Part shown: piece after piece, positions 11,470-46,577 of the stretch
How positions within the stretch are numbered: the first letter of the stretch is position 1
Layout of the letters: every line of letters begins with the position of its first letter
Assembly (NCBI GenBank): GCA_041744215.1
Contig: JBGTLG010000038.1
Location: forward strand, 1-62,997
Direction: 5' to 3'
DNA length: 62,997 bases
From: Fimbriimonadales bacterium
Lineage (GTDB): Bacteria > Armatimonadota > Fimbriimonadia > Fimbriimonadales > ATM1
Translations under genes and position numbers: made by a program
Notes under the pieces: generated by a model
What the model saw: the letters and a program-made list of their open reading frames with translations, nothing else
What the model was told of the DNA's origin: nothing
The model's database searches: none

Positions 11470-11482
11470 TTTATCTAGTCTC

Positions 11483-24206: not shown

Positions 24207-26051
24207 GTGGCGTATCTGATCGGAACCGCGGGCCATGTGGACCATGGCAAGACGACGCTCATTGCAGCGCTCACTGGGATTGACGCGGATCGGCTACCCG
24301 AAGAGAAAGCGAGGGGTATGACGATCGACATCGGCTTCGCCCACATCGACCTGGACGGGATCGGGCGGGTAAGCCTCGTCGATGTGCCCGGCCACGAGCG
24401 GTTCATCAAGAACATGCTGGCTGGCGCATCGGGAGTTGATGTCGCGATGCTGTGCGTGGCGTCGGACGAAGGCGTGAAACCGCAGACGCGCGAACACTTC
24501 GACATCATACGCCTGTTAGAAGCTCGCGCCCTCGTCGTCGCTCTGACAAAGTGCGACGCCACGGATGACGAAACTCAGTCGATTGCGGAACTAGACGTCA
24601 GCGCTCTGCTTGAGGGAACGCAATTCGCTGGAGCTCCCATTGTTCGCGTGTCTGCAGTCTCGGGGCTGGGCCTTGATGCTTTGAAACTGGAGTTGGCCCG
24701 GACTATGCTGAGGCTCGGCGCGAGGGAAGAAGAGGGTGGTTGGTTCTTGCCAATCGACCGCGTGTTCACGGCGCCTGGGCATGGCACGGTCGTCACTGGA
24801 ACGTTGGCCCGGGGTCGCGTCTTGCCGGGATCCGAGGGTGAGTTGATGCCCGGCACGAAACGTCTCCGAATCCGTGGGGTCCAAGTCCACGGCTCGGCGG
24901 CGGAGTTCGCCGAAGCGGGCCAGCGCACTGCGCTGAATGTGACTGGCGCAAAGCGGGAGGACTTACACCGAGGGCAGGCAATCGGCTCGCCGGGATCCCT
25001 GGTGGAGTCTCAATGCCTGAATGTCCGCGTTACGCCACTAGCCGAGATCAAGCACGGTCAGAGGATCCGACTTCACGTCGGTAGCGGGGAGTTTATTGGG
25101 AAGATCCACCTCTTCGATCTCGCCCCAGGATTTGGACAGATTCGGCTGGAAGAACCCCTTGCGTGCGCTCGGGGGCAGCGCGGGGTACTGCGGCGGTACT
25201 CCCCGCCCGATGTGCTTGCCGGGGTCGAAATTGTGACTCCGATCTCAAAACCGAGGAGAAAGAACGACCGGGAGGTCATCGAGCTCTTGACTGAGCAGTC
25301 GGACTCGGCTGGGATCGTGGACGAGATCTCGAGGCGGCCCGCTGGTGCACTGACCTCAGATGTGTGCGAAGCCTTGGGTCGAACTCCTCAAGAACTGGGG
25401 GACGACTTCGAGCGGCTCAAGGGCCAAGGAGCGATCCTCGGGTTTGCTGGGATGTGGCTGACCCAGGCGTCATATCTTGGAGTGGCGGAGAGAGTCAGGG
25501 CCGCGACCCTTGCGGTTCACGAAGCAGCCCCGCGTAACCCTTCTGCCCCGAAGGCGGGGGTGCTAAAGGAGTCTGGGCTTGGATGGCCCCCCAAGTCGTT
25601 CGACCGTCTGATTGCGCTGATGGCCAGCGAGGGGCTGATCGTGCTTCACGGCGCAGAGGTTCGGCACCCCGATTTTCGGGTAAGGCTCTCCGATAAGCAA
25701 CAGGCGTTGCTCGACAGGATTCTGGCCGAAATGCAGTCGAAGGGCGCCATCGCGCCGAGCGCAAGGGAAATCGGCGAGGCATTGGCGGTGCCGCCGCAAG
25801 CTGTGGAGGAGATGTGGAGGTTGGGTGTCGCGACCGGCAGAATGATCCGTGTGGACGAGGGTCTGTACTACACCATCGAGACGCTTGAGGAGATCAAGGC
25901 AATGGTCAAGGGCCTCGGCGAGAGATTTACTGTTGCGGATTTCCGCGATGCAACAGGTTCCTCTCGAAAGTACGCCCTACCACTCTTGATCTACTTGGAT
26001 GAACTGAAGTTCACACGGCGGGTCGGAGATGAGCGCATCGTGCTCAAGTGA
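24207..26051 (+). CDS. selB: Selenocysteine-specific elongation factor
   Basis: [48 protein letters not shown]-terminal winged helix [12 protein letters not shown]....TRR.GD.R. Confidence 0.95.
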
Positions 26052-28136: not shown

Positions 28137-30248
28137 ATGCCCCGCACCCACGCACTGGACGTAACCCGCAACATCGGAATTGCCGCTCACATCGACGCCG
28201 GCAAGACGACAACGACTGAGAGAATTCTTTTCTACTCGGGCCGTTTGCACCGCATGGGTGAAGTTCACGATGGCGCCGCAACGATGGACTGGATGGAACA
28301 GGAGCAGGAGCGCGGGATTACGATTACTTCTGCCGCAACAACCACATTTTGGCGAGACCATCGAATCAACATCATTGACACTCCGGGACACGTCGACTTC
28401 ACAGTCGAGGTAGAGCGATCACTCAGAGTTCTTGACGGAGTGGTCGCGGTCTTTTGTGCGGTCGGAGGTGTACAGCCTCAGTCGGAGACGGTCTGGCGTC
28501 AGGCAAACAAGTACGGTGTCCCGCGGATTGTTTACATCAACAAGATGGATCGACTCGGCGCCGACTTTTTCGGCGTCGTTGAGAAGATTCGCGCGCGCTT
28601 GGGCTGCAACGGCGTCCCGATTCAGGTGCCGATCGGTGCTGAAAGCAATTTCGAGGGATACGTTGATCTTGTGCGCATGAAGGCAATCGTTTACAAAGAC
28701 GATTTGGGTAAAGAGTACGACGAAGTCGACGTGCCAGAAAGCGTGTTGCAGATTGCCGCCGAATACCGCGAAAAGATGATTGAGGCGTGCTCCGACGTGA
28801 ATGAGGAGATCATGGTTCGATTCCTCGAAGGTCAAGAGATCGGCGAGGCGGACCTGCGCGACGCGCTTCGGAAAGGAACGCTTCAAAACAAAATTGTCCC
28901 GATCATCTGCGGGTCATCGTTCAAGAACAAAGGTGTCCAAGCGTTGCTGGATTCGATTATCGATTACCTGCCGAGTCCGCTCGACGTCGGGTCAGTCACA
29001 GGTATCGACCCAGAAACGGATGCGGAATTGGTTCGTGATCCAGACGATAATGCGCCGTTCACTTCGCTTGCATTCAAGATCATGAGTGACCCCTATGTTG
29101 GGCGACTCACATACATCAGGATTTACAGTGGAACCCTCAAGAAGGGTACTGCTTATCTCGTCTCGTATCGCGACCCGCAAACCAACGAGTTTAAGACTCG
29201 CAAAGAGCGAGTGGGACGCATCCTGCAAATGCACGCAAACAGTCGAGAAGATCTGGAGGAGTCGTTTGCTGGCGACATAGTAGGCGTCATTGGACTCAAC
29301 GACGTTACTACCGGCTATACGATTTGTGACACCAGCAATCCAATAGTTCTGGAAGCAATCAAGTTTCCCGAGCCTGTTATCTCGATTGCGATCGAACCGA
29401 AGTCTCGAGCTGACCAAGAGAAACTTGGTCAGAGCCTTCAACGCCTCGCGCAAGAAGACCCAACGTTTCGCGTGAGAACCGACTCCGAAACAGGTCAAAC
29501 GATCATCAGCGGAATGGGTGAGCTGCATCTCGAAATAATCGTGGATCGACTCGGCCGAGAGTTTGGCGTTAGCGCGAATCAAGGGCGACCGATGGTAGCG
29601 TACAAGGAGACGGTGCGCAGGCACGTCAAAGCCGAAGGAAAGTACATTCGGCAGAGTGGCGGTTCAGGGCAGTACGGACACATTTGGATCGAACTCGAGC
29701 CACTTCCTCCTGGAGGCGGCTTTGTGTTTGAAAACAAGCTGAGCGGCGGCGCCATTCCAAGAGAATACGTACCTGCCGTCGAAAAAGGAATTCGCGAAGC
29801 AATGGAGTCGGGTGTCCTCGCCGGTTATCCGGTGGTGGACGTGAAAGTAACTCTCGTCGACGGCTCGTATCACGAAGTCGACTCGAGCGAGATTGCTTTC
29901 AAGCAAGCGGCGCTCATCGGTTTCCGCGAAGCAATGAAACAAGCTGGGCCAACACTGAAGGAGCCGATCATGGCTGTGGAGATAACCACACCCGAGCAAT
30001 ATCTCGGGGACGTGATGGGCGACGTGCAGTCGAGGCGCGGTCGGATTGAGGGCACCGAACCTTCAATCGGCGGGGTTCAGATTGTGAAATCTTTGATCCC
30101 GCTTGCGGAAATGTTCGGGTACGTGACGTCGTTGCGATCCCTGACGCAGGGCAGGGCAGCGCCGAGCGTGACGCCATCGCACTATGAGGATGTCCCTCAA
30201 GGCGTGGCAGACGAAATTATTTCAAAAGCCCAAGGCGGCAGAAACTAA
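28137..30248 (+). CDS. fusA: Elongation factor G (canonical)
   Basis: [47 protein letters not shown]. Confidence 0.99.
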
Positions 30249-30260
30249 ACGAGGTGATCC

Positions 30261-31463
30261 ATGGCCAGAGCTAAATTCGAGAGAACCAAACCGCACGTCA
30301 ACATCGGAACGATCGGTCACGTCGACCACGGAAAGACGACGCTGACTTCAGCGATCACAAACGTGTTGGCGGCGAAGGGTCTCGCACAGAAAAAGAAGTA
30401 CGAAGAAATCGATGCAGCGCCCGAAGAGAAGGCGCGCGGCATCACGATCAACATCTATCACGCCGAATATGAGACGGATACGCGGCACTATGCCCACGTC
30501 GACTGTCCAGGCCACGCCGACTTCATCAAGAACATGATCACCGGTGCGGCACAGATGGACGGTGCAATTCTCGTCGTGTCGGCGACAGACGGCCCGATGC
30601 CGCAAACGCGCGAGCACATCCTCCTTGCACGACAGGTCGGCGTTCCCCATATCGTGGTTTTCATGAACAAGTGCGATATGGTCGACGATGAAGAGTTGCT
30701 CGAAGTTGTCGAGCTTGAGATCCGTGACTTGCTCAGCAAGTACGACTTCCCGGGCGACGATGTCCCGGTCATCCGCGGCTCGGCGCTCAAGGTCATGGAG
30801 CAAGACCCCATCAACTTGGACGATCCTTGGACGAAGAAGATCCTTGAGTTGATGGAAGCGGTTGACAACTTCATTCCGACCCCAGAGCGCGATACCGAGA
30901 AGCCATTCTTGATGGCTGTTGAGGACGTGTTCACCATCACAGGACGTGGCACCGTTGCAACGGGTCGCGTAGAGCGAGGACAGCTCAAGTCGATGGAAGA
31001 AGTCGAAATCATTGGGCTCAAAGAAGAGAGTCGAAAGACGGTCTGCACAGGTATCGAGATGTTCCGCAAACTGCTCGACTACTGCCAGGCTGGCGACAAC
31101 GTCGGACTACTGCTTCGAGGCGTCGACCGCGAGCAGATCGAGCGCGGAATGGTCGTTGCTAAACCCGGCTCGATCAAGCCGCACACGAAGTTTGAGTCCG
31201 AGGTCTACGTGTTGTCGAAGGAAGAAGGCGGGCGACACACTCCGTTCATCTCCGGCTACCGACCTCAGTTCTACTTCCGCACGACCGACGTTACTGGCGA
31301 GCTTCGCTTGCCGGAGGGCGTCGAGATGTGTATGCCGGGAGACAACATCACCATGTCGGTTCAGTTGATTCAACCGATTGGGATGGAGCAGGGCTCCAAA
31401 TTCGCGATTCGTGAAGGCGGCCGAACCGTCGGAGCCGGAACCATCACGAAGGTGTTCGAATAG
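30261..31463 (+). CDS. tuf: Elongation factor Tu
   Basis: [33 protein letters not shown]. Confidence 0.99.
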
Positions 31464-31465
31464 AA

Positions 31466-31518
31466 TCGAGTGACGAGAGCTGGGAGAAATCTCCCGGCTC
31501 TCGACACTTTTCACTCGA
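31466..31518 (+). terminator. Long hairpin between tuf and rpsJ (terminator/attenuator/processing site)
   Basis: CGAGAGCTGGGAG-aaat-CTCCCGGCTCTCG then acac-TTTT; outer TCGAGTGA/TCACTCGA arms. Confidence 0.6.
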
Positions 31519-31527
31519 GACAAATAC

Positions 31528-31839
31528 ATGAGAAACGACAGAGTTCGAATAAAGCTAAAGGCGTACGATCACCGCGCGCTTGACCAATCGGCACAAAAGA
31601 TCGCCGAGACAGTGAAGCGCACCGGCGCACGTCTTTGCGGGCCAATCCCGCTGCCGACAAACATCCGGCGCTACTGTACGATTCGTGGCCCACACATCGA
31701 CAAGGAGTCGATGGAGCACTTTGAGATTCGGATCCACAAACGCATCATCGATATCTTGGATCCAACAAACAAAACAATCGATGCCCTCATGCGCTTGGAC
31801 TTGCCGAGCGGCGTCGACATTGAGGTGAAGCAAGCCTAA
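31528..31839 (+). CDS. rpsJ: 30S ribosomal protein S10
   Basis: [32 protein letters not shown]. Confidence 0.99.
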
Positions 31840-31946
31840 CGGCAAGCCGCCACAGAAGCCTCGGAGCAGCCGTCGAGCAACCCCGACTTAGAGCGGGCAA
31901 GGCCAGAGTCAGACGAGTACCTGCGTATGAGGCAAGGAGAACATTT

Positions 31947-32570
31947 GTGATAACCGGAATAGTTGGAAGAAAAGTCGGTATGACCCACCTCTTTACAGAG
32001 GGGGGCGCCGCACAGCCGGTCACTGTTATACAGGCCGGTCCGGTGTTCGTTACGCAAGTAAAGACGGCTGAGACTGATGGTTATGATGCAGTCCAAGTTG
32101 GATTCGAAGAAACTAAGCCTCGAAAGCTGACGTTCCCGGAGGCAGGGCACCTCAAGAAGGCCGGAACGGGCCCCTTGAAGGTGTTGCGAGAGTTTCGATG
32201 CCCCTCGAATGGGATTGAAGTTGGCCAGAAGATCACGGTCGACATCTTCGAGCCAGGCGAGGATGTGAGAGTCGTTGGCACGAGCAAAGGCCGAGGGTTC
32301 GCTGGCGCCGTAAAGCGCCACCATTTTCGCGGCCAGCACATGACTCACGGATACATGACCCATCGGCGGCCGCTGTCAAGTGGCGCAACAGGACCACAGA
32401 GAGTCTTCAAGGGCAAGCGGGGCCCTGGTCACATGGGTGACGAGACCGTCACAGAAGTCGGCCTCAGAGTTGTTCAAGTGGATCCGGAGCGAAACCTGAT
32501 CCTTGTTAGTGGGAGCGTACCGGGCGCGCCCGGCGGACTCGTAAAGATTTTGAAGGCGGGTAAGAACTAA
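31947..32570 (+). CDS. rplC: 50S ribosomal protein L3
   Basis: GRKVGMT, DGYDAVQVG, GTSKGRGF.G, RVFKG, GSVPG. Confidence 0.98.
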   Translation: MITGIVGRKVGMTHLFTEGGAAQPVTVIQAGPVFVTQVKTAETDGYDAVQVGFEETKPRKLTFPEAGHLKKAGTGPLKVLREFRCPSNGIEVGQKITVDIFEPGEDVRVVGTSKGRGFAGAVKRHHFRGQHMTHGYMTHRRPLSSGATGPQRVFKGKRGPGHMGDETVTEVGLRVVQVDPERNLILVSGSVPGAPGGLVKILKAGKN

Positions 32571-33223
32571 TGACAACCGTCAAAATAGTCGACAGCAAAG
32601 GAAAGGAAAAAGGCAGCGTGGACCTTCAGGTCTCCGCTGATGTAAAGCAGTCGGTGCTCCATCGTGCCGTCGTTGCGGAAGAGGCGAACAAGCGTCAAGG
32701 GACGCAGAAAGCCAAGACCCGAGCAGAGGTTCGCGGCGGAGGTCGCAAGCCCTACAGGCAAAAGAAGACCGGTCGTTCACGGCAAGGCTCGATCCGCTCT
32801 CCTCTGCACCGAAAGGGCGGAGTGGTGTTTGCGCCTGTACCCCGCGACTACGATAAGAAGGTGAATCGTAAGGAGCGAAGGCTCGCTCTGCAGACGGCGC
32901 TTGCAACTCAGGCAGATGCCGGCAAGCTGATCGTTGTAGACAAAATCGAGTTCTCGGAGCCGAAGACGAAAGACGCAGTCGCGCTGCTAACGGCAGTTGG
33001 AGCTAACTCGCGTCGTGTACTCGTCATCCTGCCTGCTTACGACGAGATCGCGTTAAAGGCGTTTCGCAATCTTCCAAATGTCGAAGTCCGAACGGCGCCA
33101 ATCCGAGCAAAGGAAGGCGAGCCGGTTCGATCACAAGGATTTAGCACCCGCGACCTTCTCGTCGCGCATCAAATCGTCGTCGCGAAAGACGCGTTAACGG
33201 CAATTCAGGAGGCTTGGGCGTGA
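32570..33223 (+). CDS. rplD: 50S ribosomal protein L4
   Basis: RQGT..KTRAEVRGGGRKPYRQK.TGR.RQGS, PKTK, RNLP. Confidence 0.98.
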   Translation: MTTVKIVDSKGKEKGSVDLQVSADVKQSVLHRAVVAEEANKRQGTQKAKTRAEVRGGGRKPYRQKKTGRSRQGSIRSPLHRKGGVVFAPVPRDYDKKVNRKERRLALQTALATQADAGKLIVVDKIEFSEPKTKDAVALLTAVGANSRRVLVILPAYDEIALKAFRNLPNVEVRTAPIRAKEGEPVRSQGFSTRDLLVAHQIVVAKDALTAIQEAWA

Positions 33224-33537
33224 GTAAGAACGCTACTGACATCATCCTCGGTCCCCACCTGACCGAGAAGACGGTTCGCCTCGGTGAAGGCGGCAAGTTT
33301 GTGTTCTGGGTACATCCTGACGCGAACAAGATCGAAATCGCGAAGGCAATAGAGTCGATTTACAACTCCGGAAAGAAGAAGGACAAGGACAAGATCACGG
33401 TGCTCAAAGTGAACGTGATGAACCAGAAAGGGAAGCTGAAGCGCGTCTCGTTCAAGTCCAAAGGCCACCGGCCCGATCGCCGCAAAGCGATCATCACACT
33501 TGAGCCGGGTCAGATCCTGGAGGGCTTTGGAGTCTAA
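33220..33537 (+). CDS. rplW: 50S ribosomal protein L23
   Basis: GTG 33220 after AGGAGG, overlapping rplD stop; P.LTEK, F.V...ANK.EI..A.E, KAI.TL. Confidence 0.95.
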
Positions 33538-33539
33538 CC

Positions 33540-34373
33540 ATGGGAACAAGAACTCATAAACCGACATCTGCTGGCCGGCGACACCTCATCAGCTCGGATT
33601 ACGCCGAAGTAACCAAGTCAAAGCCCGAGCCGACGCTCACGTCCGGAATCTCCAAGTCGGGCGGTCGAAACCATACGGGTCGGACGACAGCGCACTGGCG
33701 TGGTGGCGGCAACAAACGGCGCTATCGAATGATCGATTTCCGTCGGCAGAAAGATGGAATAGCGGCGAAAGTTGCCGCAATCGAATACGATCCAAATCGT
33801 ACAAGCCGAATCGCACTGTTGCACTATGTCGACGGCGAAAAGCGCTATATCATCGCACCGGCTGGGCTTGAAGTAGGCCAAACGATTATGAGTGGGCCAG
33901 AGGCGGACATCCGCACTGGCAATTGTCTTCCGCTAAACAATATTCCGCTTGGCTCGCAAGTTCACAACATCGAATTGCAGCCTGGGAAAGGCGGGCAGCT
34001 CGCGAGGGCTGCGGGCATGTCAGCGCAAGTGATGGCAAAAGAGCACGGCTACGTGACGCTCCGACTGCCGAGCAATGAAATGCGCCGCGTGATCGGAACG
34101 TGCAGAGCGACCCTCGGCGAGGTCGGCAATGCACAGCACGAAAACGAAGTCCTCGGCAAGGCCGGAAAGAACAGGGCAAAGGGCCGCAGGCCTCATGTGA
34201 GGGGCGTGGCAATGACCCCGAGGGATCACCCGCATGGCGGCGGCGAAGCCAAATCTCCGGTTGGAAGAAAGAAGGGCCCAGTAGATCGATGGGGCAATAA
34301 GGCTTTGGGGCAGAAGACGCGACGAAACAAGCGCAGCGACAAGTTCATCGTTCGGCGCAGAGGTAAGAAGTAA
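33540..34373 (+). CDS. rplB: 50S ribosomal protein L2
   Basis: [26 protein letters not shown]. Confidence 0.99.
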
Positions 34374-34648
34374 TGGGAAGGAGCATCAAGAAGGGTCCAT
34401 TCGTAGACTCCCACCTGATCAAGAAGGTGGATCGGCTCAACGCGGGCGGCCAAAAGGTGATCATCAAGACCTGGTCGCGGCGAAGCACGATCGTTCCGGA
34501 GATGATCGGGCATACATTTGCAGTTCACGACGGTCGCAAGCACACGCCGGTTTATGTCACTGAAAACATGGTCGGTCACAAACTCGGTGAGTTTGCTCCG
34601 ACACGGACATACCGCGGCCACGCCGGTGACAAATCGAAGGTGAAATAA
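34373..34648 (+). CDS. rpsS: 30S ribosomal protein S19
   Basis: [28 protein letters not shown]. Confidence 0.99.
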
Positions 34649-34649
34649 G

Positions 34650-35351
34650 ATGAGACTCGTTTGGTTTTTGGCTGGCGCTCTCATACTGTCGATGGGTTAC
34701 TCCCCAACGGCAGCGCATCAGGACGCGCCGCTGAAAGTCAAACTCCAGCGAGTCTACAAGGCCGGAGAAAGCCAGGACTACACGTTTGTAATAGAGTTTG
34801 ACGAGGGAGAGTCGGTCAAGCTCGAAGGCGCATTCAACCTCACGATCCAAAAGCTGGCGGACGGCGGAAGCGCAGAGATCGTTGAGAAGGTCACCAAACT
34901 GAAAGTCACCTTTGGCGGCGAATCGCTTGATGAGCAAGAACTCCCAGAACCCGAAACATTGACCTACGGCCCCAACGGGCTCCCTACCGAGCTGACAGAC
35001 GAGTACGACTTGATGAGCGTTCTCTCATACCTCGGCGGATGGCTCCCCAACACAGAAGTAGAGTTGGGCGGAACTTATGAGTTCAAGTGGATCCCAGGTC
35101 GGACGTCGATCAGAGCAGAAGGAAAGGCCACGCTGATCGCCACGGGTCGCCTATTCGAAGAGCGTGTTGCGAAAATCGAGATGGAAATCTCTTGCGCAGG
35201 CGATGCAGACATGGGCAGTTCCAAGACGGCGTTGACGAGCTACCTCAATCTCGAAACGGGCAAGATCGTGCGCATCGTTGGAACGTCGGACCTGTCCGCG
35301 GGTGGAGAAACCGCTACGATCAAGTTTGACTTCAAGAAGGTGAGATCATGA
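34650..35351 (+). CDS. Secreted beta-rich hypothetical protein inside the S10 operon (paralog A)
   Basis: 233-aa ORF starting 1 nt after the rpsS stop; Sec-type signal peptide; alternating hydrophobic beta strands. Confidence 0.8.
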   Translation: MRLVWFLAGALILSMGYSPTAAHQDAPLKVKLQRVYKAGESQDYTFVIEFDEGESVKLEGAFNLTIQKLADGGSAEIVEKVTKLKVTFGGESLDEQELPEPETLTYGPNGLPTELTDEYDLMSVLSYLGGWLPNTEVELGGTYEFKWIPGRTSIRAEGKATLIATGRLFEERVAKIEMEISCAGDADMGSSKTALTSYLNLETGKIVRIVGTSDLSAGGETATIKFDFKKVRS

Positions 35352-36049
35352 GATCACTTCTCAAGCTTATGCCGCTCGCCCTCTTCACTTGCGCGTATGC
35401 CGCGACTCAGGATTCAATCACGTTCGATCAAAACTGGAAGGTTGGCGGTGGCGACACACAGCGGATTGGTATGGCGATGACTTTGCCTGTCGGTGACGTT
35501 GTCGTCACCATGGTTTCTACACAGAAGGCACTCAAGGTTCATGAAAACGGAGACGCAGATGTTGAGACTTCGCTTGCCGACATGGTGGTATTGCTAAACG
35601 GAAACAAGATGGACGTGCCTGGCGCCGGCAGCAGCCCGAGAACCGTGACTCGAATGAACCGAGTGGGCATGCCCCTGGAGCGGCCGCAGAGTGCCGGACG
35701 CGGAATGGGTCTGGAGTTCATCGCATTTGCCTGCGTGGTTGTCGACAAGAAGATGAAAGCGGGCGAAGTCGCGACAATCGACTACGCAAGTTCCGCTGAG
35801 CCAAAGGTCCGAATCAAGGGCGTAACGACTATCGAGAGCATCGCAGACGGGACGGCCAAAGTCGTCGGTAGGTACCAAGTTTGGGCTGACCCAGCAGACG
35901 AAAAGCCGATGCAAGTGGCAATGACGCACTGGATTCGGGTTTCGGACAGCAAGTTTATGAAATCGGAAGGCACGTTCACAGATGTGCCTTCACAGCAGGG
36001 GATAGCGATCTCAGCTGTTCAGTACACGATGGAATTGATCGAGAAGTAG
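35348..36049 (+). CDS. Secreted beta-rich hypothetical protein inside the S10 operon (paralog B)
   Basis: 233-aa ORF, ATGA overlap with the previous gene; signal peptide ending AYA; same motif skeleton as paralog A. Confidence 0.8.
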   Translation: MRSLLKLMPLALFTCAYAATQDSITFDQNWKVGGGDTQRIGMAMTLPVGDVVVTMVSTQKALKVHENGDADVETSLADMVVLLNGNKMDVPGAGSSPRTVTRMNRVGMPLERPQSAGRGMGLEFIAFACVVVDKKMKAGEVATIDYASSAEPKVRIKGVTTIESIADGTAKVVGRYQVWADPADEKPMQVAMTHWIRVSDSKFMKSEGTFTDVPSQQGIAISAVQYTMELIEK

Positions 36050-36058
36050 GAAAGCCAA

Positions 36059-36616
36059 ATGGAAGTTCGAGCAGTAGGAAAGAAGATTCGAGTCCAGCCG
36101 CGCAAAGTGCGGTTGGTCGCCGATGAGATACGAGGCAAACACGCTGTGCTTGCCCTCGCGCAGCTTCGATACCACCCAAGCAAGAGCGCGCGCATGTTGC
36201 ACAAGGTGCTACACAGCGCGGTTTCGAATGCGATTGAGAATGACGGGCTCGGCGCAGAGAATCTCGTTGTCGCTGGAATCAAAGTTGACGAGGGTCCCAG
36301 TTTCAAGCGCATGCGACCCCGGGCAATGGGCCGTGGCAATGTGATCATCAAGCGCAGCAGTCACATTACTGTTACCCTGCGCGAAGGGGCTCCGTTCGAG
36401 CTGCCAAAGTCGAACGCTAAGCCAAAGCCCAGACCAAAGTTTGATGCGCCAAAGACCAAGAAGGAACCTGCGAAAGCGAAGCCGGCGACAGCAGAGGCCG
36501 CCCCGTCCGAGGAAACCAAAGACGTGATCGAGGCAGACACTGAGGTCACGACAAGCGCGGAACCGGCGGGTGAATCTGCTGAGCCACAAGAAGAAGCAAA
36601 GGGAGACGAATCGTAG
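36059..36616 (+). CDS. rplV: 50S ribosomal protein L22 with long C-terminal extension
   Basis: [30 protein letters not shown]; ~70-aa Lys/Pro then Glu-rich tail. Confidence 0.98.
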
Positions 36617-37431
36617 TGGGACAGAAAGTACATCCGATCGGATTTCGAGTCGGTGTCATTCGTGATTGGGATAGTCGCTGGTATGCCTCGAAGAAGGATT
36701 ACCCAGCGCTCCTCAAGAGCGATCACGCGATTCGGTCATTCATCAAGCGGAAGCTCGGTCTTGGAAACATCAGCCGAGTGGACATTGAGCGCGCAGCAAA
36801 CAAGGTTCGAGTTACGCTGTTCACAGCGAGGCCCGGCGCGGTCATCGGTCGTGGCGGTCGAGGCATTGATGAGTTGACACAAGACCTGCAAAGGGTTGTC
36901 GGCAAGCTCGACAAAGATGCACGCGTCCACGTGAATGTCAGTGAAGTTCGGCAAGCGGAACTGGATGCCCAACTCGTAGCCGAGAACATTGCACAACAAC
37001 TTGAACGCCGCATCTCGCACCGACGTGCAATGCGGCAATCGATTACCCGCGCGTTACGAATGAATGGCCGCGGCATCAAAATCATCGTATCTGGGCGACT
37101 GAACGGCGCAGAGATTGCGCGCAGAGAAACCGAAAAGGTCGGAAAGATTCCTCTCCACACACTTCGTGCCGACATTGACTACGGCATCGCAGAAGCAAAG
37201 ACGACGTACGGTGTGATCGGGGTCAGAGTGTGGGTCTACAAGGGAGAGGTACTTCCGGAGCGCATTGGCCCCGATCCGACTTCGAGGGAACGCCCCGCTC
37301 GGAAGAAGCCTGCGCCGGAGCAACCAGCTGCTGAGACTCCGACTCCAGCAGAAGAGACGGTGCCTGCGCCAGAAGCAACAGCGAGCGTTGAAGCTTCAGA
37401 ACAGGAGGTGAGCGCGAATGTTGATGCCTAA
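36616..37431 (+). CDS. rpsC: 30S ribosomal protein S3 with C-terminal extension
   Basis: [39 protein letters not shown]. Confidence 0.99.
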
Positions 37432-37951
37432 GCGCGTCAAGCATCGAAAGGTCACTCGAGGCCGCAGAAAGGGAACCTCGAAAGGCGCAAGCAGATTGGA
37501 TTTTGGCGACTACGGGATTCAAGCGCTCGAGGCGGCCTGGATAACCAACCGCCAGATAGAAGCATCACGTATCTCGATGACCCGCTACATCAAGCGTGGC
37601 GGAAAAGTCTGGATCCGGATCTTTCCTGATAAGCCATACACAAAGAAACCTGCGGAAACACGAATGGGCTCAGGTAAGGGCTCTGTCGAAGGCTGGGTCG
37701 CTGTCGTAAAGCCTGGACGAATTCTTTTCGAAATGTCCGGAGTCCCTCAGGACGTCGCAAAAGAAGCGATGCGTCGCGCGAGTCATAAGCTGCCGATCCG
37801 AGTGAAGTTTGTAACCCGCGCTGACTTCCCGGATCACGCAGAAGTTGTGGAGGCCGAAGAGGGCGTAATGGCGCCCGAACCGCCAAAGTTCGTAGTGGAG
37901 CGGCAAGCAAAACAGAACGACACACCAGAGCAACCTGAGGAAGAAGCATGA
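37418..37951 (+). CDS. rplP: 50S ribosomal protein L16 with acidic C-terminal extension
   Basis: [31 protein letters not shown]. Confidence 0.99.
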
Positions 37952-38154
37952 AGAACTTGAAGGCGAAAGATTTGAGAAGCAAGTCCGATGGCGACTTGGA
38001 AGTGATGTTGGCAAAAGAACAGCAAGCGCTATATGACATGCGCAAGAAGGCGGGCTTTCGTGATCTGAAAGACACGACCAGCCTTAAGGTTCAACGACAC
38101 AACATTGCTAGGCTTCATACCGTCATAGCCGAGAAACAGAGAGGAAGCAATTGA
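37948..38154 (+). CDS. rpmC: 50S ribosomal protein L29
   Basis: Size and position; KAKDLR, IARL.TV..EK. Confidence 0.93.
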
Positions 38155-38423
38155 TGGAGCAACAAAGCACAGAGAGCCGAAACGCTCGCAAAATCCGGGT
38201 TGGCCTCGTGGTGTCAAACAAGATGGACAAAACAGTGGTCGTCAGCGTACAGCGGCAGGTGCAGCATCCGCTCTATAAGAAGACGGTGCGTCGAAGCAAT
38301 AGCTTTAAGGCGCACGACGAGATTGGCTGCGATGTTGGAGACAGTGTCGAAATCATGGAGACGCGCCCGATCAGCAAGGAAAAGCGCTGGCGCGTAACAC
38401 GGATCCTGGAGAAGGTGAAGTAG
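38154..38423 (+). CDS. rpsQ: 30S ribosomal protein S17
   Basis: [32 protein letters not shown]. Confidence 0.98.
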
Positions 38424-38464
38424 CGAGCGATCGCAAAGCGAAGGATTGACAAGCGGAGATCACG

Positions 38465-38833
38465 ATGATTCAGCAGTATTCAAGACTAAAGGTTGCCGAC
38501 AACTCTGGAGCGCGCGAAGTAATGTGTATTCGTGTGCTAAAGGGTTCGCAGCCGCGCTACGGAAAGATCGGCGACGTCTTTGTCGGCTCGGTCAAAACGG
38601 TGACGCCCAATATGCCGGTAAAAAAGGGTGATGTAATCAGAGCCGTCATCGTTCGTACTAAGCACGCGACTCGCCGTGGCGACGGTAGCACCGTGCGCTT
38701 CGACGACAATGCATGCGTTCTTCTGAACGCACAAAACGAGCCACGAGGGACGCGAATTTTTGGCCCTGTCGCGCGCGAACTGCGCGATAAGGAGTTCATG
38801 AAGATCGTGTCACTCGCGCCGGAGGTTCTCTAA
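38465..38833 (+). CDS. rplN: 50S ribosomal protein L14
   Basis: [35 protein letters not shown]. Confidence 0.99.
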
Positions 38834-38836
38834 TCA

Positions 38837-39202
38837 ATGGGATCACAGATAAAGCTTAAGATCAAGTCAGGAGACCGTGTCCTCATCATCACAGGTAAGG
38901 ACAAAGGGCAGCAAGGTCGCGTCATAAGCGTCGATCCTAAGCACCATACACTCCTTGTAGAAGCGCTGACGAAAGACAAACAGGGCGTTGCGGCGCCGCT
39001 AAACGCTGTGACCAAGCACCGCAAGGCTAGAAACCCGCAGGAGCAGGGGGAAAAGACTCGCATTCCCGCCCCGCTTCACATCAGCAAGGTCATGCTGATT
39101 GATCCTGACAGCGAGAAGCCGACGCGTGTCGGTCGCCGCCTTGAAAATGGCAAGCTCGTGCGCTATGCCAAGGCAACGAAGAAAACGATTCACAGCGACT
39201 AA
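38837..39202 (+). CDS. rplX: 50S ribosomal protein L24
   Basis: KOW motif [20 protein letters not shown]. Confidence 0.97.
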
Positions 39203-39213
39203 GAGAAACGACG

Positions 39214-39801
39214 ATGGCTAAAGAAAAGACAGCAACCGCCGCTCCAGCAACGCCGCCGCGTAGCAGACTTCGCGATTACTATCGCGATAACGTGCTGCCC
39301 GAGCTCGTCAAGGAGTTCGAGTATACGACGCCGATGCAGGCGCCACGCCTCGAAAAGATCGTGGTGAACATGGGGGTTGGACAGGCACTAAAAGAAGCCA
39401 AGCTTCTTGAAAACTCCGTGCGAGATCTAACGATCATCGCCGGGCAGAAGCCGGTCGTCACAACCGCGAAGAAAGCCATCTCGAACTTCCGATTGCGCGA
39501 AGGCAACAAGATTGGTTGCAAGGTCACCCTTCGAGGCGAGCGGATGTATCACTTCCTTGACAAACTAATCACAGTGGTCCTGCCGAGACTGCGTGACTTC
39601 CAGGGGCTTAGCGCGAAGTCATTCGACGGGCGCGGAAACTATGCGCTTGGACTAAAAGAGCAACTCGTGTTCCCTGAGATCAACTACGACACTTTTGACA
39701 GAATTCGCGGCATGGACATTGTGATTTGTACAACCGCTAAGACCGATGCGGAGGCGCGGTCATTCCTCAAGAAAATGGGGATGCCGCTTCGAGAGAAGTA
39801 A
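39214..39801 (+). CDS. rplE: 50S ribosomal protein L5
   Basis: [38 protein letters not shown]. Confidence 0.99.
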
Positions 39802-39823
39802 CTGAGAAGGAGGAATCGAGAAC

Positions 39824-41890
39824 TTGGACTATAAGGCTGAGAACATCCGAAACGTTGCAATCGTTGGACACGGCGGAGCAGGAAAGACGACACTTGTCGA
39901 GCAGCTGCTCTTCACTGCCGGCGCGATTGACCGTCTCGGCTCGGTCGATCAAGGAACAAGCCACTCCGATTTCGATGCACAAGAAGTTCGCCGGAAAATT
40001 AGCCTCAGTGCTGCAGTGCTTCCGCTCGAGTGGAAGGGTTGCAAAATCAATCTCATCGATGTTCCGGGATATCCGGACTTTATTGGTGACCTCTACGGTG
40101 TTGCTCGAGTGGTGGAGGCGATGATTATTGTCACGCCCGCCCAAGATACGCTCGACGTTGGATTCGATACAGCGTGGGACATCGCCGAACAACAGGGACT
40201 GACGCGACTTATCTTCGTCAACAAAATGGATCGGGATAATGCGGACTTTCCCGGTCTAATGAAGACATTCGAGTCTCGGTACGGGGTCAAAGTTGTTCCG
40301 ATTCAGGTGCCCGTTGGGCAACAGACCGGATTCGAGGGGGTCTACGACATTCTCGAGGAGAAAGTTTACAGTGGAGGCTCAAAAGACGCAAAGGTTGCGC
40401 CGCCTTCCGAGCAAATGCACGCCGATGCAGAGCCGCAGATAGAAAAGATGATGGACGCGGCGGCAGAAGGTGATGACGACTTGGCGCTCAAGTATTTAGA
40501 AGGCGAGTCGTTGAGTGAAGAAGAGATTGAGCACGGACTCGAAGTCGGAGCAGAGGATGGGAAAGTGTTCCCCCTACTCATGGGAAGTGCGCTGCACGGA
40601 ATTGGCATCCAATCTCTGCTTGATCACATCGTGGGACTGGTACCGAGTCCCAGCACAAAACCAAAAGAGCACGACGGCAAAGAGATCGCTCCCGATCCAG
40701 CGGCGCCCTTGAGCGCGTTCGTTTTCAAAACCACTGCGGACCCCTATGTGGGCCGCATCAACTACGTTCGTGTGATGACTGGCACGTTGAAGTCTGATTC
40801 GCCACTCAGAAACAGCGGTAATGACGAGAACGAGCGAATAGGATCGCTGTCGTTCCCGTTTGGCAAAGAGGTGAAATCGGCGTCAGGAGTGATCGCCGGG
40901 GACATCGCCGCGTTGGCGAAGCTTCAACACACTCGAACGGGCGACACACTTTGCGACCCTAAATCGCCAGCAACATACGATCCGATCAAGTTTCCTGAAC
41001 CCATTTATCGTGTAGCTATCGTCGCCAAAACGAAAAACGACGAAGATAAGCTGGGTGCAGCGATAACGAGAATTGCTGACGAAGACTTGACGTTTTGCCA
41101 TCATCGAGACGGAGAACTCCACCAGGACCTTATTGAAGGGATGGGCGACGTTCATCTCGACTCGGTCATCGAGAAGCTGCGCGACAAGTTTGGCGTCAAC
41201 GTAGAAACGAGTGAGGCGAAGATCGCCTTCCGAGAAACCATAAAAGCCCCCGCGAAGGCACAAGGCAAGTACAAGAAGCAATCGGGCGGACGTGGACAGT
41301 ACGGCGATTGTCATGTAGAGCTTTCGCCGCTACCTCGTGGTAGTGGTTTCGAATTCAGCGATAGCGTCGTGGGCGGATCAATCCCAAAGAACTACCTGCC
41401 GGCGATCGAGAAAGGCATCGTCGATGCAATGACCAAGGGCTTCCTCGCGGGCTACCAAGTGGTGGATGTGAAAGCAAACGTCTTTCACGGTAGCTACCAC
41501 GATGTCGACTCGAGCGAAATGGCGTTTAAGTCTGCTGGCGCGCTCGCCTTCAAGAACGCAGCGGAACAAGCGCAGCCGACAATACTCGAACCGATTCTCT
41601 ATGTTGAAGTCGACGTCCCAGAAGAATACACAGGCGACGTTATGGGCGACCTAAACACCCGTCGTGGCCGACCCATGGGTATGGAAATGGTTGGCTCAGG
41701 CCGGCAACGAATCATGGCTGAAGTCCCAATGGCGACGATGACTAAATACGCCCTCGACTTACGGTCCATAACCAAGGGACGAGGCCGATTTCGAGTCGAG
41801 TTTCGCCGGTACGATGAGGTTCCACACAACGAGCAGCAAGCTCTAATCAACGAGTTCAAGAAACGTAAAGCGGAGGTAGCCGAGGACTAA
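39824..41890 (+). CDS. Second, divergent elongation factor G (EF-G2/EF-G II type) inside the spc operon
   Basis: TTG start after AAGGAGG; GHGGAGKTT P-loop, switch I RKISL instead of RGITI, DVPG, NKMD, KKQSGGRGQYGD, GSYHDVDSSEMAFK. Confidence 0.93.
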   Translation: MDYKAENIRNVAIVGHGGAGKTTLVEQLLFTAGAIDRLGSVDQGTSHSDFDAQEVRRKISLSAAVLPLEWKGCKINLIDVPGYPDFIGDLYGVARVVEAMIIVTPAQDTLDVGFDTAWDIAEQQGLTRLIFVNKMDRDNADFPGLMKTFESRYGVKVVPIQVPVGQQTGFEGVYDILEEKVYSGGSKDAKVAPPSEQMHADAEPQIEKMMDAAAEGDDDLALKYLEGESLSEEEIEHGLEVGAEDGKVFPLLMGSALHGIGIQSLLDHIVGLVPSPSTKPKEHDGKEIAPDPAAPLSAFVFKTTADPYVGRINYVRVMTGTLKSDSPLRNSGNDENERIGSLSFPFGKEVKSASGVIAGDIAALAKLQHTRTGDTLCDPKSPATYDPIKFPEPIYRVAIVAKTKNDEDKLGAAITRIADEDLTFCHHRDGELHQDLIEGMGDVHLDSVIEKLRDKFGVNVETSEAKIAFRETIKAPAKAQGKYKKQSGGRGQYGDCHVELSPLPRGSGFEFSDSVVGGSIPKNYLPAIEKGIVDAMTKGFLAGYQVVDVKANVFHGSYHDVDSSEMAFKSAGALAFKNAAEQAQPTILEPILYVEVDVPEEYTGDVMGDLNTRRGRPMGMEMVGSGRQRIMAEVPMATMTKYALDLRSITKGRGRFRVEFRRYDEVPHNEQQALINEFKKRKAEVAED

Positions 41891-41939
41891 AGGGTAAAAT
41901 CCGCCTTTGTGCCTCCTGTCCGGAGCAAAAACAAGCAAC

Positions 41940-42125
41940 ATGGCAAAACAATGTTTGATCGTCAAGCAGAAGCGTCGCCCGAAGTTCAAATCGCGCGGCT
42001 ACAACCGCTGCAGCATCTGCGGACGCCCGCGTGGTTATTTCCGCGACTTCGGCGTCTGTCGCATATGTCTACGTGAGTTGGCCCTGCGGGGCGTACTCCC
42101 CGGCGTTACAAAATCGAGTTGGTAA
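41940..42125 (+). CDS. rpsZ: 30S ribosomal protein S14, zinc-binding (type Z)
   Basis: 61 aa; RCSICGRPR...[16 protein letters not shown]. Confidence 0.97.
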
Positions 42126-44202: not shown

Positions 44203-44629
44203 ATTGAAACCCGAAAAGGGAAGCACTAAGCGTATTCGACGGATCGGACGAGGCATCGGCAGCGGCAGCGGAAAGACGTCGGGCAGGGGATCGAAGGGCC
44301 AGAAGTCGCGAACGAGTATTCACCCAGCGTTCGAGGGCGGGCAAACACCGATCCAGCGAAGACTTCCCGTAAAGAAAGGCTTTCGAAACCCGAATCACAA
44401 GGAGTATGCGGTGCTCAACGTCAGCACGCTTGAGGCCAAGTTCGAGTCGGGCGCCGATGTCAATCCTGAGACGGTGGCTAAGAAGGGACTGATCGGCAAC
44501 CCGAAAGACGGACTTAAGATTTTGGGGCTTGGCGACGTCAAGAAGAAGCTTAAGGTTTCTGCACACGCGTTCAGCAAATCGGCCGAAGAAAAAATCAAAA
44601 GTGCAGGTGGAGAGGTCGTTGTTCTGTGA
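44192..44629 (+). CDS. rplO: 50S ribosomal protein L15
   Basis: ATG 44192 after GGAGG; GRGIGSGSGKTSGRG.KGQ.SR, FEGGQTP, KILG.G. Confidence 0.98.
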   Translation: MLHELKPEKGSTKRIRRIGRGIGSGSGKTSGRGSKGQKSRTSIHPAFEGGQTPIQRRLPVKKGFRNPNHKEYAVLNVSTLEAKFESGADVNPETVAKKGLIGNPKDGLKILGLGDVKKKLKVSAHAFSKSAEEKIKSAGGEVVVL

Positions 44630-45921
44630 AGCTTGCTGATACCATAAAAGCTGCTTGGGCGGAACCAGAGCTCAGGCAACGCATCCTGTTCATTTTTTTT
44701 ATGTTCGGGGTGTTTACAGTTGGCCTCCACATCCAAGTGCCGTTTGCGTCTCAAGACGTTGCGGATGCTATCGCCAAGCGACTTGAAGATCCGGGCTTCC
44801 TCCAGCTGCTCAACCAGTTTTCAGGCGGGGCGCTGAAACGTGTTTCCATCTTTGCGCTCGGGTTGAACCCTTACATAACATCTTCGATCATCATGCAATT
44901 GATGACGGTCGCAATCCCGCAGTGGAAGAAGGACATGTCCGAGGGCGGCCAATACGAGCGCATGAAGCGGGCTCAACGCACTCGTTTTCTAACTCTGGTG
45001 CTTTGTATCGTTCAGGGATTTGGATTCCTGGCGATGTTTGGAGTTAACCTCCCCGTACTCGATCGCATGCTGGTCGTAACGACCTGGACTGCAGGAGCCA
45101 TGATGGTCCTCTGGCTTGGCGAACAGATTCAGGAGAAGGGAATCGGCCAAGGCGTGTCGCTCATGATCTTCGCCGGAATCGTCGTCTCGTTTCCGACACA
45201 GGTGCAGTTGCTCTACGCGGAAGCGACGGGACAAGGCAACGCATTCGGCGTCGCAGTGCTTGTCCTGCTGTTCCTCGCCATGACGATGTTCATTGTTTAC
45301 TTCACGCAGGCACAGCGAAGAATCGCAATACAGCATATGCGGCGAAATGTGGGCGGAAAGATGGTGGCGGGCGGATCGTCCTCCTACCTCCCTATTCCCG
45401 TTAATGCTGCTGGCGTGATCCCGATCATCTTTGCAGTCTCGCTGGTCTATCTGCCGAGCCAGTTTGCAAACTTCGGCGCGCCAGGGTCTGCATGGCACAC
45501 AGTTTGGACTAACGTCGCGCAATGGTTCAGCCCACAGACGAGCGCGTTCATCTACCAAACGATCATCGGCACGATTGTCTACGCGTTCATGATCTTCTTC
45601 TTCACGTATTTCTACACAGCGATTCAGTTCAACGTGGAAGATATCGCAAATCAGTTGAAGCGAAGTGGCGCGTACATCCCAGGAATTCGACAGGGGCAGC
45701 AAACGGAGAAGTTTTTGGATGGCGTTATCTCGCGAATAACTTTCGTCGGCGCAGCATTCCTGGCGTTCGTTTCGCTCGTCCCATACTGGGTGCCCGCGAT
45801 CACGGGTATCACTGCGTTTAGCTTCATTGGCGGAACCTCGCTCCTGATTATCGTCAGCGTCGTCTTGGATCTGATGCGCCAGATTGAGGCAAATCTAATC
45901 ATGCGGGGCTATGCTAAATAG
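44626..45921 (+). CDS. secY: Preprotein translocase SecY
   Basis: SIFALG.NPYITSSII.QL, WLGEQI...GIG.G.S, AGVIPIIFA, IPGIR.G, GGTSLLI.V.V. Confidence 0.98.
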   Translation: MKLADTIKAAWAEPELRQRILFIFFMFGVFTVGLHIQVPFASQDVADAIAKRLEDPGFLQLLNQFSGGALKRVSIFALGLNPYITSSIIMQLMTVAIPQWKKDMSEGGQYERMKRAQRTRFLTLVLCIVQGFGFLAMFGVNLPVLDRMLVVTTWTAGAMMVLWLGEQIQEKGIGQGVSLMIFAGIVVSFPTQVQLLYAEATGQGNAFGVAVLVLLFLAMTMFIVYFTQAQRRIAIQHMRRNVGGKMVAGGSSSYLPIPVNAAGVIPIIFAVSLVYLPSQFANFGAPGSAWHTVWTNVAQWFSPQTSAFIYQTIIGTIVYAFMIFFFTYFYTAIQFNVEDIANQLKRSGAYIPGIRQGQQTEKFLDGVISRITFVGAAFLAFVSLVPYWVPAITGITAFSFIGGTSLLIIVSVVLDLMRQIEANLIMRGYAK

Positions 45922-45923
45922 TT

Positions 45924-46577
45924 ATGCCCGCGCGCCGAATCGTACTCGTTGGCCCTCCAGGAGTTGGTAAGGGAACCCAAGCCAAGCTCATATCGTTGCG
46001 CAAGAATCTCCCAATTCTCGCGACCGGCGACTTGCTGCGAGCTGCGGTTTCCGCGGGTTCAGAACTAGGCAAGCAAGCGGCGAGCTACATGAGCCGAGGA
46101 GACCTTGTTCCTGACGAAGTGATGATAGGAGTGGTCGCAGAACGCCTCAGCAAACCCGAAATGAGCAAGGGTTTTTTGCTAGACGGATTTCCACGGAATG
46201 TCGCGCAAGCGGAGGCGCTGGACAAGGCTCTCGCCGCCGCCGGCCAGAAGATTGACGCAGTGCTTGCATTCGTTGCTCCGACCGCTACCGTAGTTGAACG
46301 GATCGCGGGCAGGCTCAACTGTCCCAATTGTGGATCGGTCTACCACGAAAAAGCGAAGCCACCCCGAGAAATGGGGCTGTGCGACGTATGTTCGTCTCCG
46401 CTAATCGTGCGTGAGGACGATCAGCCTGACGCAGTTCGGCAGCGACTCGCCGTCTACGAGGCGAGCACCGCACCTTTGTTTGAATACTATCGCTCTTCAG
46501 GAGTGCTGCGAGAAGTCGACGCGACCGGCGATGTTGAAGATGTTTACGCGTCGATCGAGGGGGCGCTGGCGAAATGA
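45924..46577 (+). CDS. adk: Adenylate kinase (zinc-lid type)
   Basis: GPPGVGKGTQ, TGDLLR, LDGFPR, CPNC...CDVC lid, REDD. Confidence 0.98.
   Translation: MPARRIVLVGPPGVGKGTQAKLISLRKNLPILATGDLLRAAVSAGSELGKQAASYMSRGDLVPDEVMIGVVAERLSKPEMSKGFLLDGFPRNVAQAEALDKALAAAGQKIDAVLAFVAPTATVVERIAGRLNCPNCGSVYHEKAKPPREMGLCDVCSSPLIVREDDQPDAVRQRLAVYEASTAPLFEYYRSSGVLREVDATGDVEDVYASIEGALAK

Follow-up and report, generated by a model that had tools for sequence, protein, structure and literature searches.

Two paralogous, probably exported proteins of a large Pfam-unmatched family are encoded at a conserved site between rpsS and rplV in the S10 operon of four Fimbriimonadales genomes

A 62,997-nucleotide (nt) stretch of DNA from a Fimbriimonadales bacterium (GenBank assembly GCA_041744215.1, contig JBGTLG010000038.1, positions 1 to 62,997 of the forward strand; hereafter the window, meaning the whole stretch that was analyzed) carries an S10 ribosomal protein operon in which the junction between rpsS and rplV is split by two open reading frames (ORFs) of 233 amino acids (aa) each, here called A and B. 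Both encode likely exported, beta-barrel-like proteins that are paralogous by profile comparison, and the same two-gene insert occupies the same junction in three related genomes. The junction and its insert comprise the following features:

34373-34648, plus strand: rpsS (ribosomal protein S19; Pfam Ribosomal_S19, E 2.3e-38), upstream of the insert
34650-35351, plus strand: ORF A, 233 aa, acidic (isoelectric point, pI, of the mature part 4.68), A-side family member, predicted to be exported and beta-barrel-like (from the ORF list, profiles and structural model)
35348-36049, plus strand: ORF B, 233 aa, Met-rich (6.05%), B-side family member, predicted to be exported and beta-barrel-like (from the ORF list, profiles and structural model)
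36047-36054, plus strand: stop codon of B and AGGA-containing spacer before the rplV start (from the sequence)
36059-36616, plus strand: rplV (ribosomal protein L22; Pfam Ribosomal_L22, E 6.6e-34, residues 5-108 of 185), downstream of the insert

The ATG start of A lies 1 nt past the TAA stop of rpsS, the start of B overlaps the stop of A by 4 nt (ATGA), and 9 nt separate the stop of B from the start of rplV. The operon reads rpsJ-rplC-rplD-rplW-rplB-rpsS-A-B-rplV-rpsC-rplP-rpmC-rpsQ, then rplN-rplX-rplE, on the plus strand; rpsS and rplV were checked against Pfam and the other S10 genes were named from their translations and position. A preliminary description of this DNA, made from the sequence alone, had reported a junction split by two 233-aa ORFs; its coordinates and gaps were reproduced exactly, and its account of the locus was right in every checkable detail. 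A search of 759 six-frame ORFs from the window and the three related loci with a hidden Markov model of the family returned eight matches, i.e., the four A and four B proteins themselves, and no further member.

The related loci were found by running a profile of A over a single genome from each species, which gave 83 pattern matches, three of which were confirmed (loci L001, L002, and L003); all three are in Fimbriimonadales metagenome-assembled genomes (MAGs). The order rpsS-A-B-rplV was present in each of them, with the start of rplV in L003 seen 9 nt past B, close to the end of the contig. The equal length of A and B that had been noted in the window recurs in L001 (233 and 233 aa) and does not extend to L002 (237 and 230 aa) or L003 (238 and 231 aa). 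Gaps between adjacent genes (negative values denote overlaps) and protein identities between the window and the three loci were as follows:

Gap from rpsS to A: window +1 nt, L001 +1 nt, L002 -4 nt, L003 -4 nt
Gap from A to B: window -4 nt, L001 -4 nt, L002 -4 nt, L003 -4 nt (ATGA in all four)
Gap from B to rplV: window +9 nt, L001 +9 nt, L002 -1 nt, L003 +9 nt
Identity of rplB, window against L001, L002, and L003: 91, 79, and 76%
Identity of rpsS: 92, 85, and 85%
Identity of A: 62, 39, and 39%
Identity of B: 41, 32, and 19%

These loci bear directly on whether the arrangement could be an artefact of assembly or annotation, such as a chimeric contig or spurious ORFs. The window and the three loci are known from assemblies alone; however, the same order and junction geometry recur in three MAG records that have different contig-naming prefixes and that have diverged at every gene, composition across the insert is uniform, both ORFs have hundreds of relatives, and both structural models have a predicted local distance difference test score (pLDDT) above 90. 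Misassembly and presence in one strain only, which the preliminary description had named among the outcomes that would overturn it, are thus excluded by the recurrence of the same order in three diverged MAGs, and we regard an artefactual origin of any kind as extremely improbable.

The A-B insert is old and has diverged much faster than the adjoining ribosomal genes, B more so than A; the retention of both frames, of similar lengths and of the coupling geometry despite this divergence argues for purifying selection on the pair. Among nine close relatives of A, the invariant columns lie mostly in residues 162-177 and 196-207, which form surface hairpins. The same comparisons can be used to weigh the alternative that A and B are a tolerated passenger, i.e., that the rpsS-rplV spacer received a duplicated gene for an exported protein, which has stayed there since either its removal or the gain of signals of its own would disturb translation of rplV and of genes further downstream, its function being unrelated to ribosome synthesis or growth rate. 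The fast divergence of B (41, 32, and 19% identity) would be in keeping with such an origin, and a general tolerance of inserts is suggested by a second insert in the window, a paralog of elongation factor G (EF-G) between rplE and rpsN, together with a long ORF at the same site in L001; furthermore, the family is large, and its other members are not known to be encoded in ribosomal operons. By contrast, both genes are intact, similar in length, and tightly coupled in all four genomes even though A has diverged to approximately 39% identity, the ATGA overlap is kept in all four, and the surface hairpins of A are strongly conserved. We consider the passenger alternative to be unlikely, albeit one that deserves to be kept in view.

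The signals around the insert point to expression from the S10 transcript. Two Shine-Dalgarno-like motifs were found at equivalent positions upstream of A and B:

34637-34643, plus strand: AAGGTGA, Shine-Dalgarno-like motif for A, 6 nt upstream of the A start and inside the last codons of rpsS (K-V-K), with a putative role in ribosome binding
35337-35343, plus strand: AAGGTGA, Shine-Dalgarno-like motif for B, 6 nt upstream of the B start and inside the last codons of A (K-V-R)

Both motifs thus sit in conserved C-terminal Lys-Val-Lys/Arg codons of the preceding gene, and all nine close A relatives examined share the K-V-R end that holds the motif for B; because the motifs lie inside these codons, conservation at the protein level there may partly reflect a constraint at the RNA level for translational coupling. 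A simple scan found no promoter-like site in 34373-36058. Over the wider interval 30000-42000, there were three promoter-like sites (4.4 +/- 2.0 in shuffles) and 13 terminator-like sites (15.9 +/- 4.3 in shuffles); one weak terminator-like hairpin lies inside B, at 35492-35509. GC content is 0.53-0.58 across A and B and 0.515-0.60 over the profiled interval 31000-39999, and is uniform; no repeats flank the pair, the only repeats being short two-copy ones of the chance type. These scans, which show nothing above chance, agree with the preliminary report of tight coupling and of no promoter, terminator, or mobile-element scar. A and B lie on the same strand as the S10 genes, with gaps of +1, -4, and +9 nt and no signals of separate transcription, as members of the operon should, and they can hardly be expressed except on the S10 transcript. 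We infer from this that they are co-transcribed and translationally coupled with ribosomal proteins, and hence abundant and scaled with growth. Codon usage is compatible with this view, with log-ratios of +0.022 for A and +0.008 for B and a mean of +0.010 +/- 0.011 for ribosomal protein and elongation factor genes, against -0.012 +/- 0.013 for 27 other genes of the window; the bias is very weak throughout, and some gene classes in this comparison are labels assigned from position and length.

A separate observation concerns the boundary between B and rplV. At 36029-36082, the first 24 nt of rplV are similar to a sequence made up of the last 26 nt of B, its stop codon, and the spacer. The local alignment has 22 matches and one 2-nt gap and scores 17, a value reached by none of 2000 shuffles, the next best score among 30 gene starts being 11. 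Of the related loci, L003 shows a marginal resemblance (p 0.038), and L001 (p 0.44) and L002 (p 0.42) show none. Possible origins are a leftover of a duplicated rplV 5' end, local gene conversion, and chance.

With regard to the relationship between the two proteins, a BLASTP comparison of A with B gave no significant match (E 0.36). Profile-profile alignment with hhalign gave a probability of 98.6% and E 8e-16 over 213 columns when A was represented by nine and B by five sequences. With 60 and 102 sequences, the values were 100% and E 8e-41, and the 211 aligned columns ran in collinear order from the signal peptide through to the C-terminus; the paralogy that the preliminary description had proposed from a shared skeleton of residues, although invisible to BLASTP, is thereby decisively supported. 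A word-indexed search found six relatives of A (39-64% identity) and one of B (86%), and a combined 12-sequence profile run against 1.84 billion representatives retrieved 814, 302, and 63 matches at E<=1e-3, 1e-10, and 1e-30, respectively. The best 150 of the 814 matches are 160-309 aa long, each with a single matched stretch, and the longest of these (309 aa) owes its length to an upstream extension of the ORF. No fused A-B form was found in a search of proteins of 542-2000 aa, the range of 408-542 aa not being covered by that tool. The only taxonomic evidence, namely the commonest-taxon labels of the Atlas clusters and the three Fimbriimonadales loci, points to Armatimonadota.

A FastTree phylogeny of 162 rows (the window pair, the three locus pairs, P0002-5, P0007, P0009, and P0010-P0157, the 211-aa fragment P0006 being left out) split into groups of 60 and 102 rows with local support of 100, and this split separates the four known A proteins from the four B proteins. 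In a quick IQ-TREE analysis of 76 rows (the eight pair members and 68 of the 70 best matches, two matches shorter than 200 aa having been dropped), 21 of the 22 A-labelled rows fell on one side, with P0077 outside; a single A clade was compatible with an approximately unbiased (AU) test (p-AU 0.863), the tree constrained to it being 34.9 log-likelihood units better than the short free search. This family-wide division into an A side and a B side indicates that the duplication long predates the four genomes compared here, and on these sequence comparisons A and B are ancient paralogs. Only five columns, four of Gly and one of Ala, reach 90% conservation or more in an alignment of 150 members, a pattern that is not enzyme-like. 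Internal tandem duplication within each protein was considered as well and was rejected, as the N-terminal and C-terminal halves did not align (hhalign on 150 rows, probability 0.9%, E 0.058). A phage, defence, or viral origin was likewise rejected, with 0 matches in PHROGs, 0 in PADLOC at E<=0.1, and 0 in a Foldseek comparison with viral models at E<=1e-3 (best TMq 0.29).

Both proteins are likely exported. Signal peptides were judged by a heuristic that looks for a hydrophobic 10-mer and applies the -3/-1 rule, and the following features were called:

34650-34715, plus strand: predicted Sec signal peptide of A, spanning residues 1-22, with T-A-A as its last residues and HQD next (hydrophobic 10-mer with a Kyte-Doolittle (KD) value of 2.52 from residue 3; putative cleavage site)
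35348-35401, plus strand: predicted Sec signal peptide of B, spanning residues 1-18, with A-Y-A as its last residues and ATQD next (hydrophobic 10-mer with a KD value of 2.0; putative cleavage site)

Neither protein has an acidic residue before the end of this 10-mer, both fit the pattern expected for export by Sec and cleavage by signal peptidase I (an N-terminal positive residue, a hydrophobic core, small residues at -3 and -1, and no lipobox Cys), and model confidence is low over residues 1-20 (pLDDT 49-54 in A and 58-62 in B); the signal peptides followed by QD that had been noticed at the outset are thus borne out by the heuristic. The feature extends to the family, as an N-terminal hydrophobic 10-mer is present in 151 of 157 members; the six others are two truncated fragments, three ORFs with upstream-extended starts, and one borderline case. 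A small-x-small motif followed within two residues by Q and one of D, E, G, or S occurs in 95 of the 157. Only eight of the 157 have a lipobox-like Cys motif, which indicates that neither A nor B is a lipoprotein.

In their mature form, the family proteins are hydrophilic (median grand average of hydropathy, GRAVY, -0.33 and -0.37 for the two sides) with a median of 0 Cys. A, described at the outset as Glu-rich, is acidic (16.6% D+E and 1.4% Met in the mature protein), B is Met-rich (6.05%), as had been described, and the difference is shared by the two sides of the family, with median pI 4.98 for A versus 7.03 for B and median Met 2.5% for A versus 4.2% for B; on the B side, Met content reaches 13.8%. 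Integral outer-membrane barrels are defined by an outward-facing hydrophobic belt and a C-terminal aromatic residue, and this class was rejected for A and B, which have GRAVY values of -0.30 and -0.14, C-terminal Ser and Lys, respectively, and a best porin-like match (4ghb) of TMq 0.24.

AlphaFold2 models built from 150-row alignments were confident for both proteins (A, pLDDT 91.7 and predicted template modeling score (pTM) 0.85; B, pLDDT 90.6 and pTM 0.85), with low confidence limited to the signal peptide. In each model, 11-13 strands and a single short helix around residues 121-129 make up a compact all-beta domain, in agreement with the all-beta architecture that had been read from the sequence. 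No solved structure was related by sequence (best E 0.63). Foldseek comparison with the PDB gave nine matches at E<=1e-3 for each model, all weak, with a best E of about 2e-4; together with the weaker listed matches, these were mostly lipid-handling beta structures, although unrelated chains (a polyketide-synthase dehydratase domain and DynF) were also listed. The closest resemblances were to LmcA and to the barrels of large lipid-transfer proteins (TMq 0.40-0.54, Foldseek probability 1.00, and E only ~2e-4 to 2e-3). For A, these included LmcA (7n3v_A, E 1.7e-4, TMq 0.40), microsomal triglyceride transfer protein (MTP; 6i7s_G, TMq 0.49), and vitellogenin (9enr_A, TMq 0.50), and for B, ApoB (9bd8_A, E 2.2e-4, TMq 0.48) and 9bd1 (TMq 0.54), with TMq 0.42-0.54 overall for the MTP, vitellogenin, and ApoB barrels. 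With identities of 7-12%, root-mean-square deviations of 6-10 A, and TM-scores of at most about 0.5, this is a resemblance of architecture and not demonstrated homology; moreover, the MTP, vitellogenin, and ApoB barrels are domains of very large eukaryotic proteins, whereas A and B have about 230 aa. LmcA of M. smegmatis is described as a beta-barrel of elongated shape that contains two cavities, may bind lipids, and is similar to CD36 and LIMP-2 (PMC8972800). A predicted complex of A residues 23-233 with B residues 19-233 scored 0.00 in both runs against a mark of 0.32, controls not having been folded alongside, a result that speaks neither for nor against binding.

Comparison with known families gave a divided answer. 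A and B have no Pfam or NCBIfam match at E<=1. DUF6263 (PF19777) was the only Pfam family that recurred among the relatives, with matches in eight of 148 (E 2e-4 to 7e-3, 16.5-21.5 bits); all eight are on the B side and align their C-terminal half with profile positions 84-185 of 196, and none of the 148 reached the gathering cut-off of 26.7 bits (best 21.5). A feature search of the language-model Atlas with A placed a DUF6263 cluster from Armatimonadota at rank 3 (0.94), and 29 of the 30 named matches to B were DUF6263 clusters (0.90-0.93). The listed DUF6263 clusters are 229-284 aa long, and the commonest taxa of three listed clusters matching B were Armatimonadota, Gemmatimonadota, and Planctomycetota. 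On these sequence and feature matches, the family is probably a distant branch of a DUF6263-like superfamily, while it is not a member by the Pfam rule. The literature searched contained no mention of DUF6263.

The LolA half of the preliminary label "LolA/DUF6263-like" fared differently. The DUF6263 half is partly supported by the sub-threshold matches and by the feature search, even though A and B themselves do not match PF19777 at E<=1; structural likeness to LolA is low, with TM-scores to LolA-type chains of only 0.17-0.25. LolA and LolB are a structurally related pair, and LolB is a lipoprotein. The LolA/LolB superfamily, RseB, LprG, DUF1329, and YmcC-like proteins are exported bacterial proteins of about 200 aa with an antiparallel beta-sheet or barrel and a short helix that carry lipids or the acyl chains of lipoproteins, and A and B are alike in build; in contrast to LolB, however, neither A nor B is a lipoprotein. 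Several chains of these kinds did occur in both Foldseek lists (3buu, 9tp6, 8t5j, 3bk5, 3m4w, 3mh8, 4z48, 3fzx, and 2in5), with TMq 0.17-0.28 for chains of the LolA superfamily, RseB, LprG, and DUF1329, and 0.26-0.33 for YmcC-like exported proteins. Membership in LolA/LolB was rejected by sequence, as neither Pfam nor NCBIfam gave a match, and superposition on LolA, LolB, RseB, or LprG, for which a TM-score of about 0.5 would be needed, was rejected with TMq 0.17-0.27 for 3buu, 9tp6, 8t5j, 8cgm, 3m4w, 2p4b, and 3mh8. A literature search on Armatimonadota and LolA found nothing related.

Taken together, these results are most consistent with A and B being Sec-exported soluble barrels that travel as translationally coupled passengers of the S10 operon and that probably bind a hydrophobic component of the envelope, a reading that we favor as a whole while judging its likelihood to fall somewhat short of even. 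Its genomic and structural part is highly probable; the carrier function of A and B, for which the models are the basis, is a tentative proposal and somewhat less likely than not. According to this reading, A and B, having no promoter or terminator of their own, would be transcribed on the S10 mRNA, with translation coupled from rpsS to A to B to rplV, and the two proteins would be made together and in proportion to ribosomal proteins. Sec would export both, their signal peptides would be removed, and the destination would be the periplasm because Armatimonadota are diderm. There, they may take up a hydrophobic component of the envelope (for example, a lipid, a glycolipid, or a lipidated protein) inside the barrel and possibly ferry it. 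A and B would do non-identical jobs; the deep split between them and their differing charge and Met content suggest two non-redundant roles, be it two steps, two ligands, or the two halves of a complex.

Several points weigh against this reading. The fold matches are weak (TMq 0.40-0.54 for LmcA and lipid-transfer barrels and 0.17-0.33 for LolA-type and YmcC-like chains), so that a ligand-carrier function rests on a loose resemblance, and the signal-peptide call rests on a home-made heuristic. No annotated family applies to A or B, DUF6263, the nearest, has no assigned function, and there is no relative by sequence that has a solved structure. The codon-usage signal is small in an organism whose bias is very weak, B is only 19% identical in L003, which would fit a less constrained role, and the genomic context is known from only four genomes of a single order, in a family with about 800 other clusters.

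Some of the same evidence would serve the alternative that A and B are abundant structural or protective proteins of the envelope (e.g., a periplasmic or surface matrix or scaffold, or a chaperone-like holdase for unfolded envelope proteins), for which the S10 site ensures very high, growth-matched expression. Operon position and coupling fit this alternative equally well, the family has no conserved polar or catalytic residues, and the matches to lipid-carrier folds are too weak to fix a ligand class; in addition, Met richness is a feature of flexible hydrophobic binding surfaces, and B is Met-rich (clade median 4.2%, up to 13.8%). The models, on the other hand, are single compact domains with no repeats, coiled coils, or features of self-assembly, and internal duplication was rejected. 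While the present data do not separate a structural from a carrier role, we consider the structural alternative to be the less probable of the two, though it is a reasonable minority view. A more specific and distinctly more speculative version of the carrier reading, which we regard as improbable, is that A and B together make up a two-part system that carries a hydrophobic building block of the envelope across the periplasm, similar to LolA/LolB or to LmcA, and whose synthesis is hard-wired to that of ribosomes such that envelope growth is stoichiometrically matched to translational capacity. Within that version, the EF-G paralog in the spc operon and an MlaD-domain gene next to rplI would, with equally little likelihood, reflect a more general tendency of the lineage to build accessory functions into its ribosomal operons. 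The MlaD-domain protein (lipid-transport MCE family, 465 aa) is encoded at 14715-16115 on the minus strand, its gene ending 4 nt before rplI (L9, 14120-14710), which is followed by dnaB; it is another envelope-lipid gene that adjoins a ribosomal protein gene.

Non-ribosomal genes within ribosomal operons are not new in themselves. A survey by Coenye and Vandamme (2005) was reportedly dedicated to the organization of S10, spc, and alpha, and secY, adk, map, and rpoA are textbook non-ribosomal passengers of the spc and alpha operons; window ORFs at the positions expected for these four genes (44626-47329 and 49282-50274) were named by position and length, none being confirmed by Pfam. Ribosomal-operon passengers elsewhere are genes of other function, including protein export, that are transcribed with ribosomal protein genes, and the A-B pair would be alike in this respect. 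With regard to surveys, the S10, spc, and alpha region was conserved in most of 113 genomes (PMC2837039). In the part of the study by Brandis (2021) on Gammaproteobacteria and Bacilli that is considered here, 77 of 115 cluster alterations arose from gene insertions (PMC8046335); three of the four insertions analyzed in that part lay between operons (tusDCB, bfd-bfr, and ilv-leu) and the fourth, nrdHEF, within rpoBC, none of the four being in S10 (PMC8046335). In contrast to these insertions outside S10, A-B splits the rpsS-rplV junction itself and is made of exported paralogs. In our literature search, beyond whose scope most subscription papers lay, neither the A/B family nor an insert between rpsS and rplV was reported, and nothing turned up on the S10 operon in Armatimonadetes. 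Non-ribosomal passengers of ribosomal operons are already known; the one described here is unusual in being a conserved insert inside S10 that consists of a paralogous pair from a large family without a match in Pfam or NCBIfam.

A conserved, coupled two-gene insert at the rpsS-rplV junction shows that the S10 order, which is among the most conserved in bacteria, can break and be fixed again, and its position marks A and B as proteins that are probably made in ribosome-like amounts. This makes the large Pfam- and NCBIfam-unmatched family to which they belong a promising place to look for an important function in the envelope of Armatimonadota, a phylum with few cultured members. If the growth coupling is real, the arrangement would be a straightforward natural way of keeping the supply of envelope in step with translational capacity; otherwise, the pair would still be a clean case in which to study how passengers become locked into essential operons.

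The window also contains other departures from the canonical ribosomal cluster. The EF-G paralog mentioned above, the second EF-G in the window, is a 688-aa protein encoded at 39824-41890 on the plus strand in the spc operon, between rplE (39214-39801) and a short S14 gene (ORF 41907-42125); all five EF-G domains are above the Pfam cut-offs, and the canonical fusA is separate, at 28137-30248. In L001, an ORF of at least 512 aa (11164-12699), open at its 3' end, lies at the same place after rplE and is comparable by its position. With the A-B pair and the EF-G paralog, the ribosomal cluster of this lineage has at least two non-canonical inserts. Three ribosomal proteins encoded downstream of the A-B pair have long Pro/Ala/Glu-rich C-terminal extensions beyond their Pfam domains, i.e., rplV (185 aa, 36059-36616), rpsC (271 aa, 36616-37431), and rplP (177 aa, 37418-37951); the rplV tail has a weak TonB_N-like match (E 0.064), and the extensions of all three are also present in L001 and L002. 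Finally, at gathering threshold Rfam identified only one tRNA (6889-6961) in the whole window, and a SelB-type selenocysteine elongation factor (24207-26051, plus strand; Pfam SelB-wing_3 and Beta-barrel_SelB) implies that the organism uses selenocysteine.

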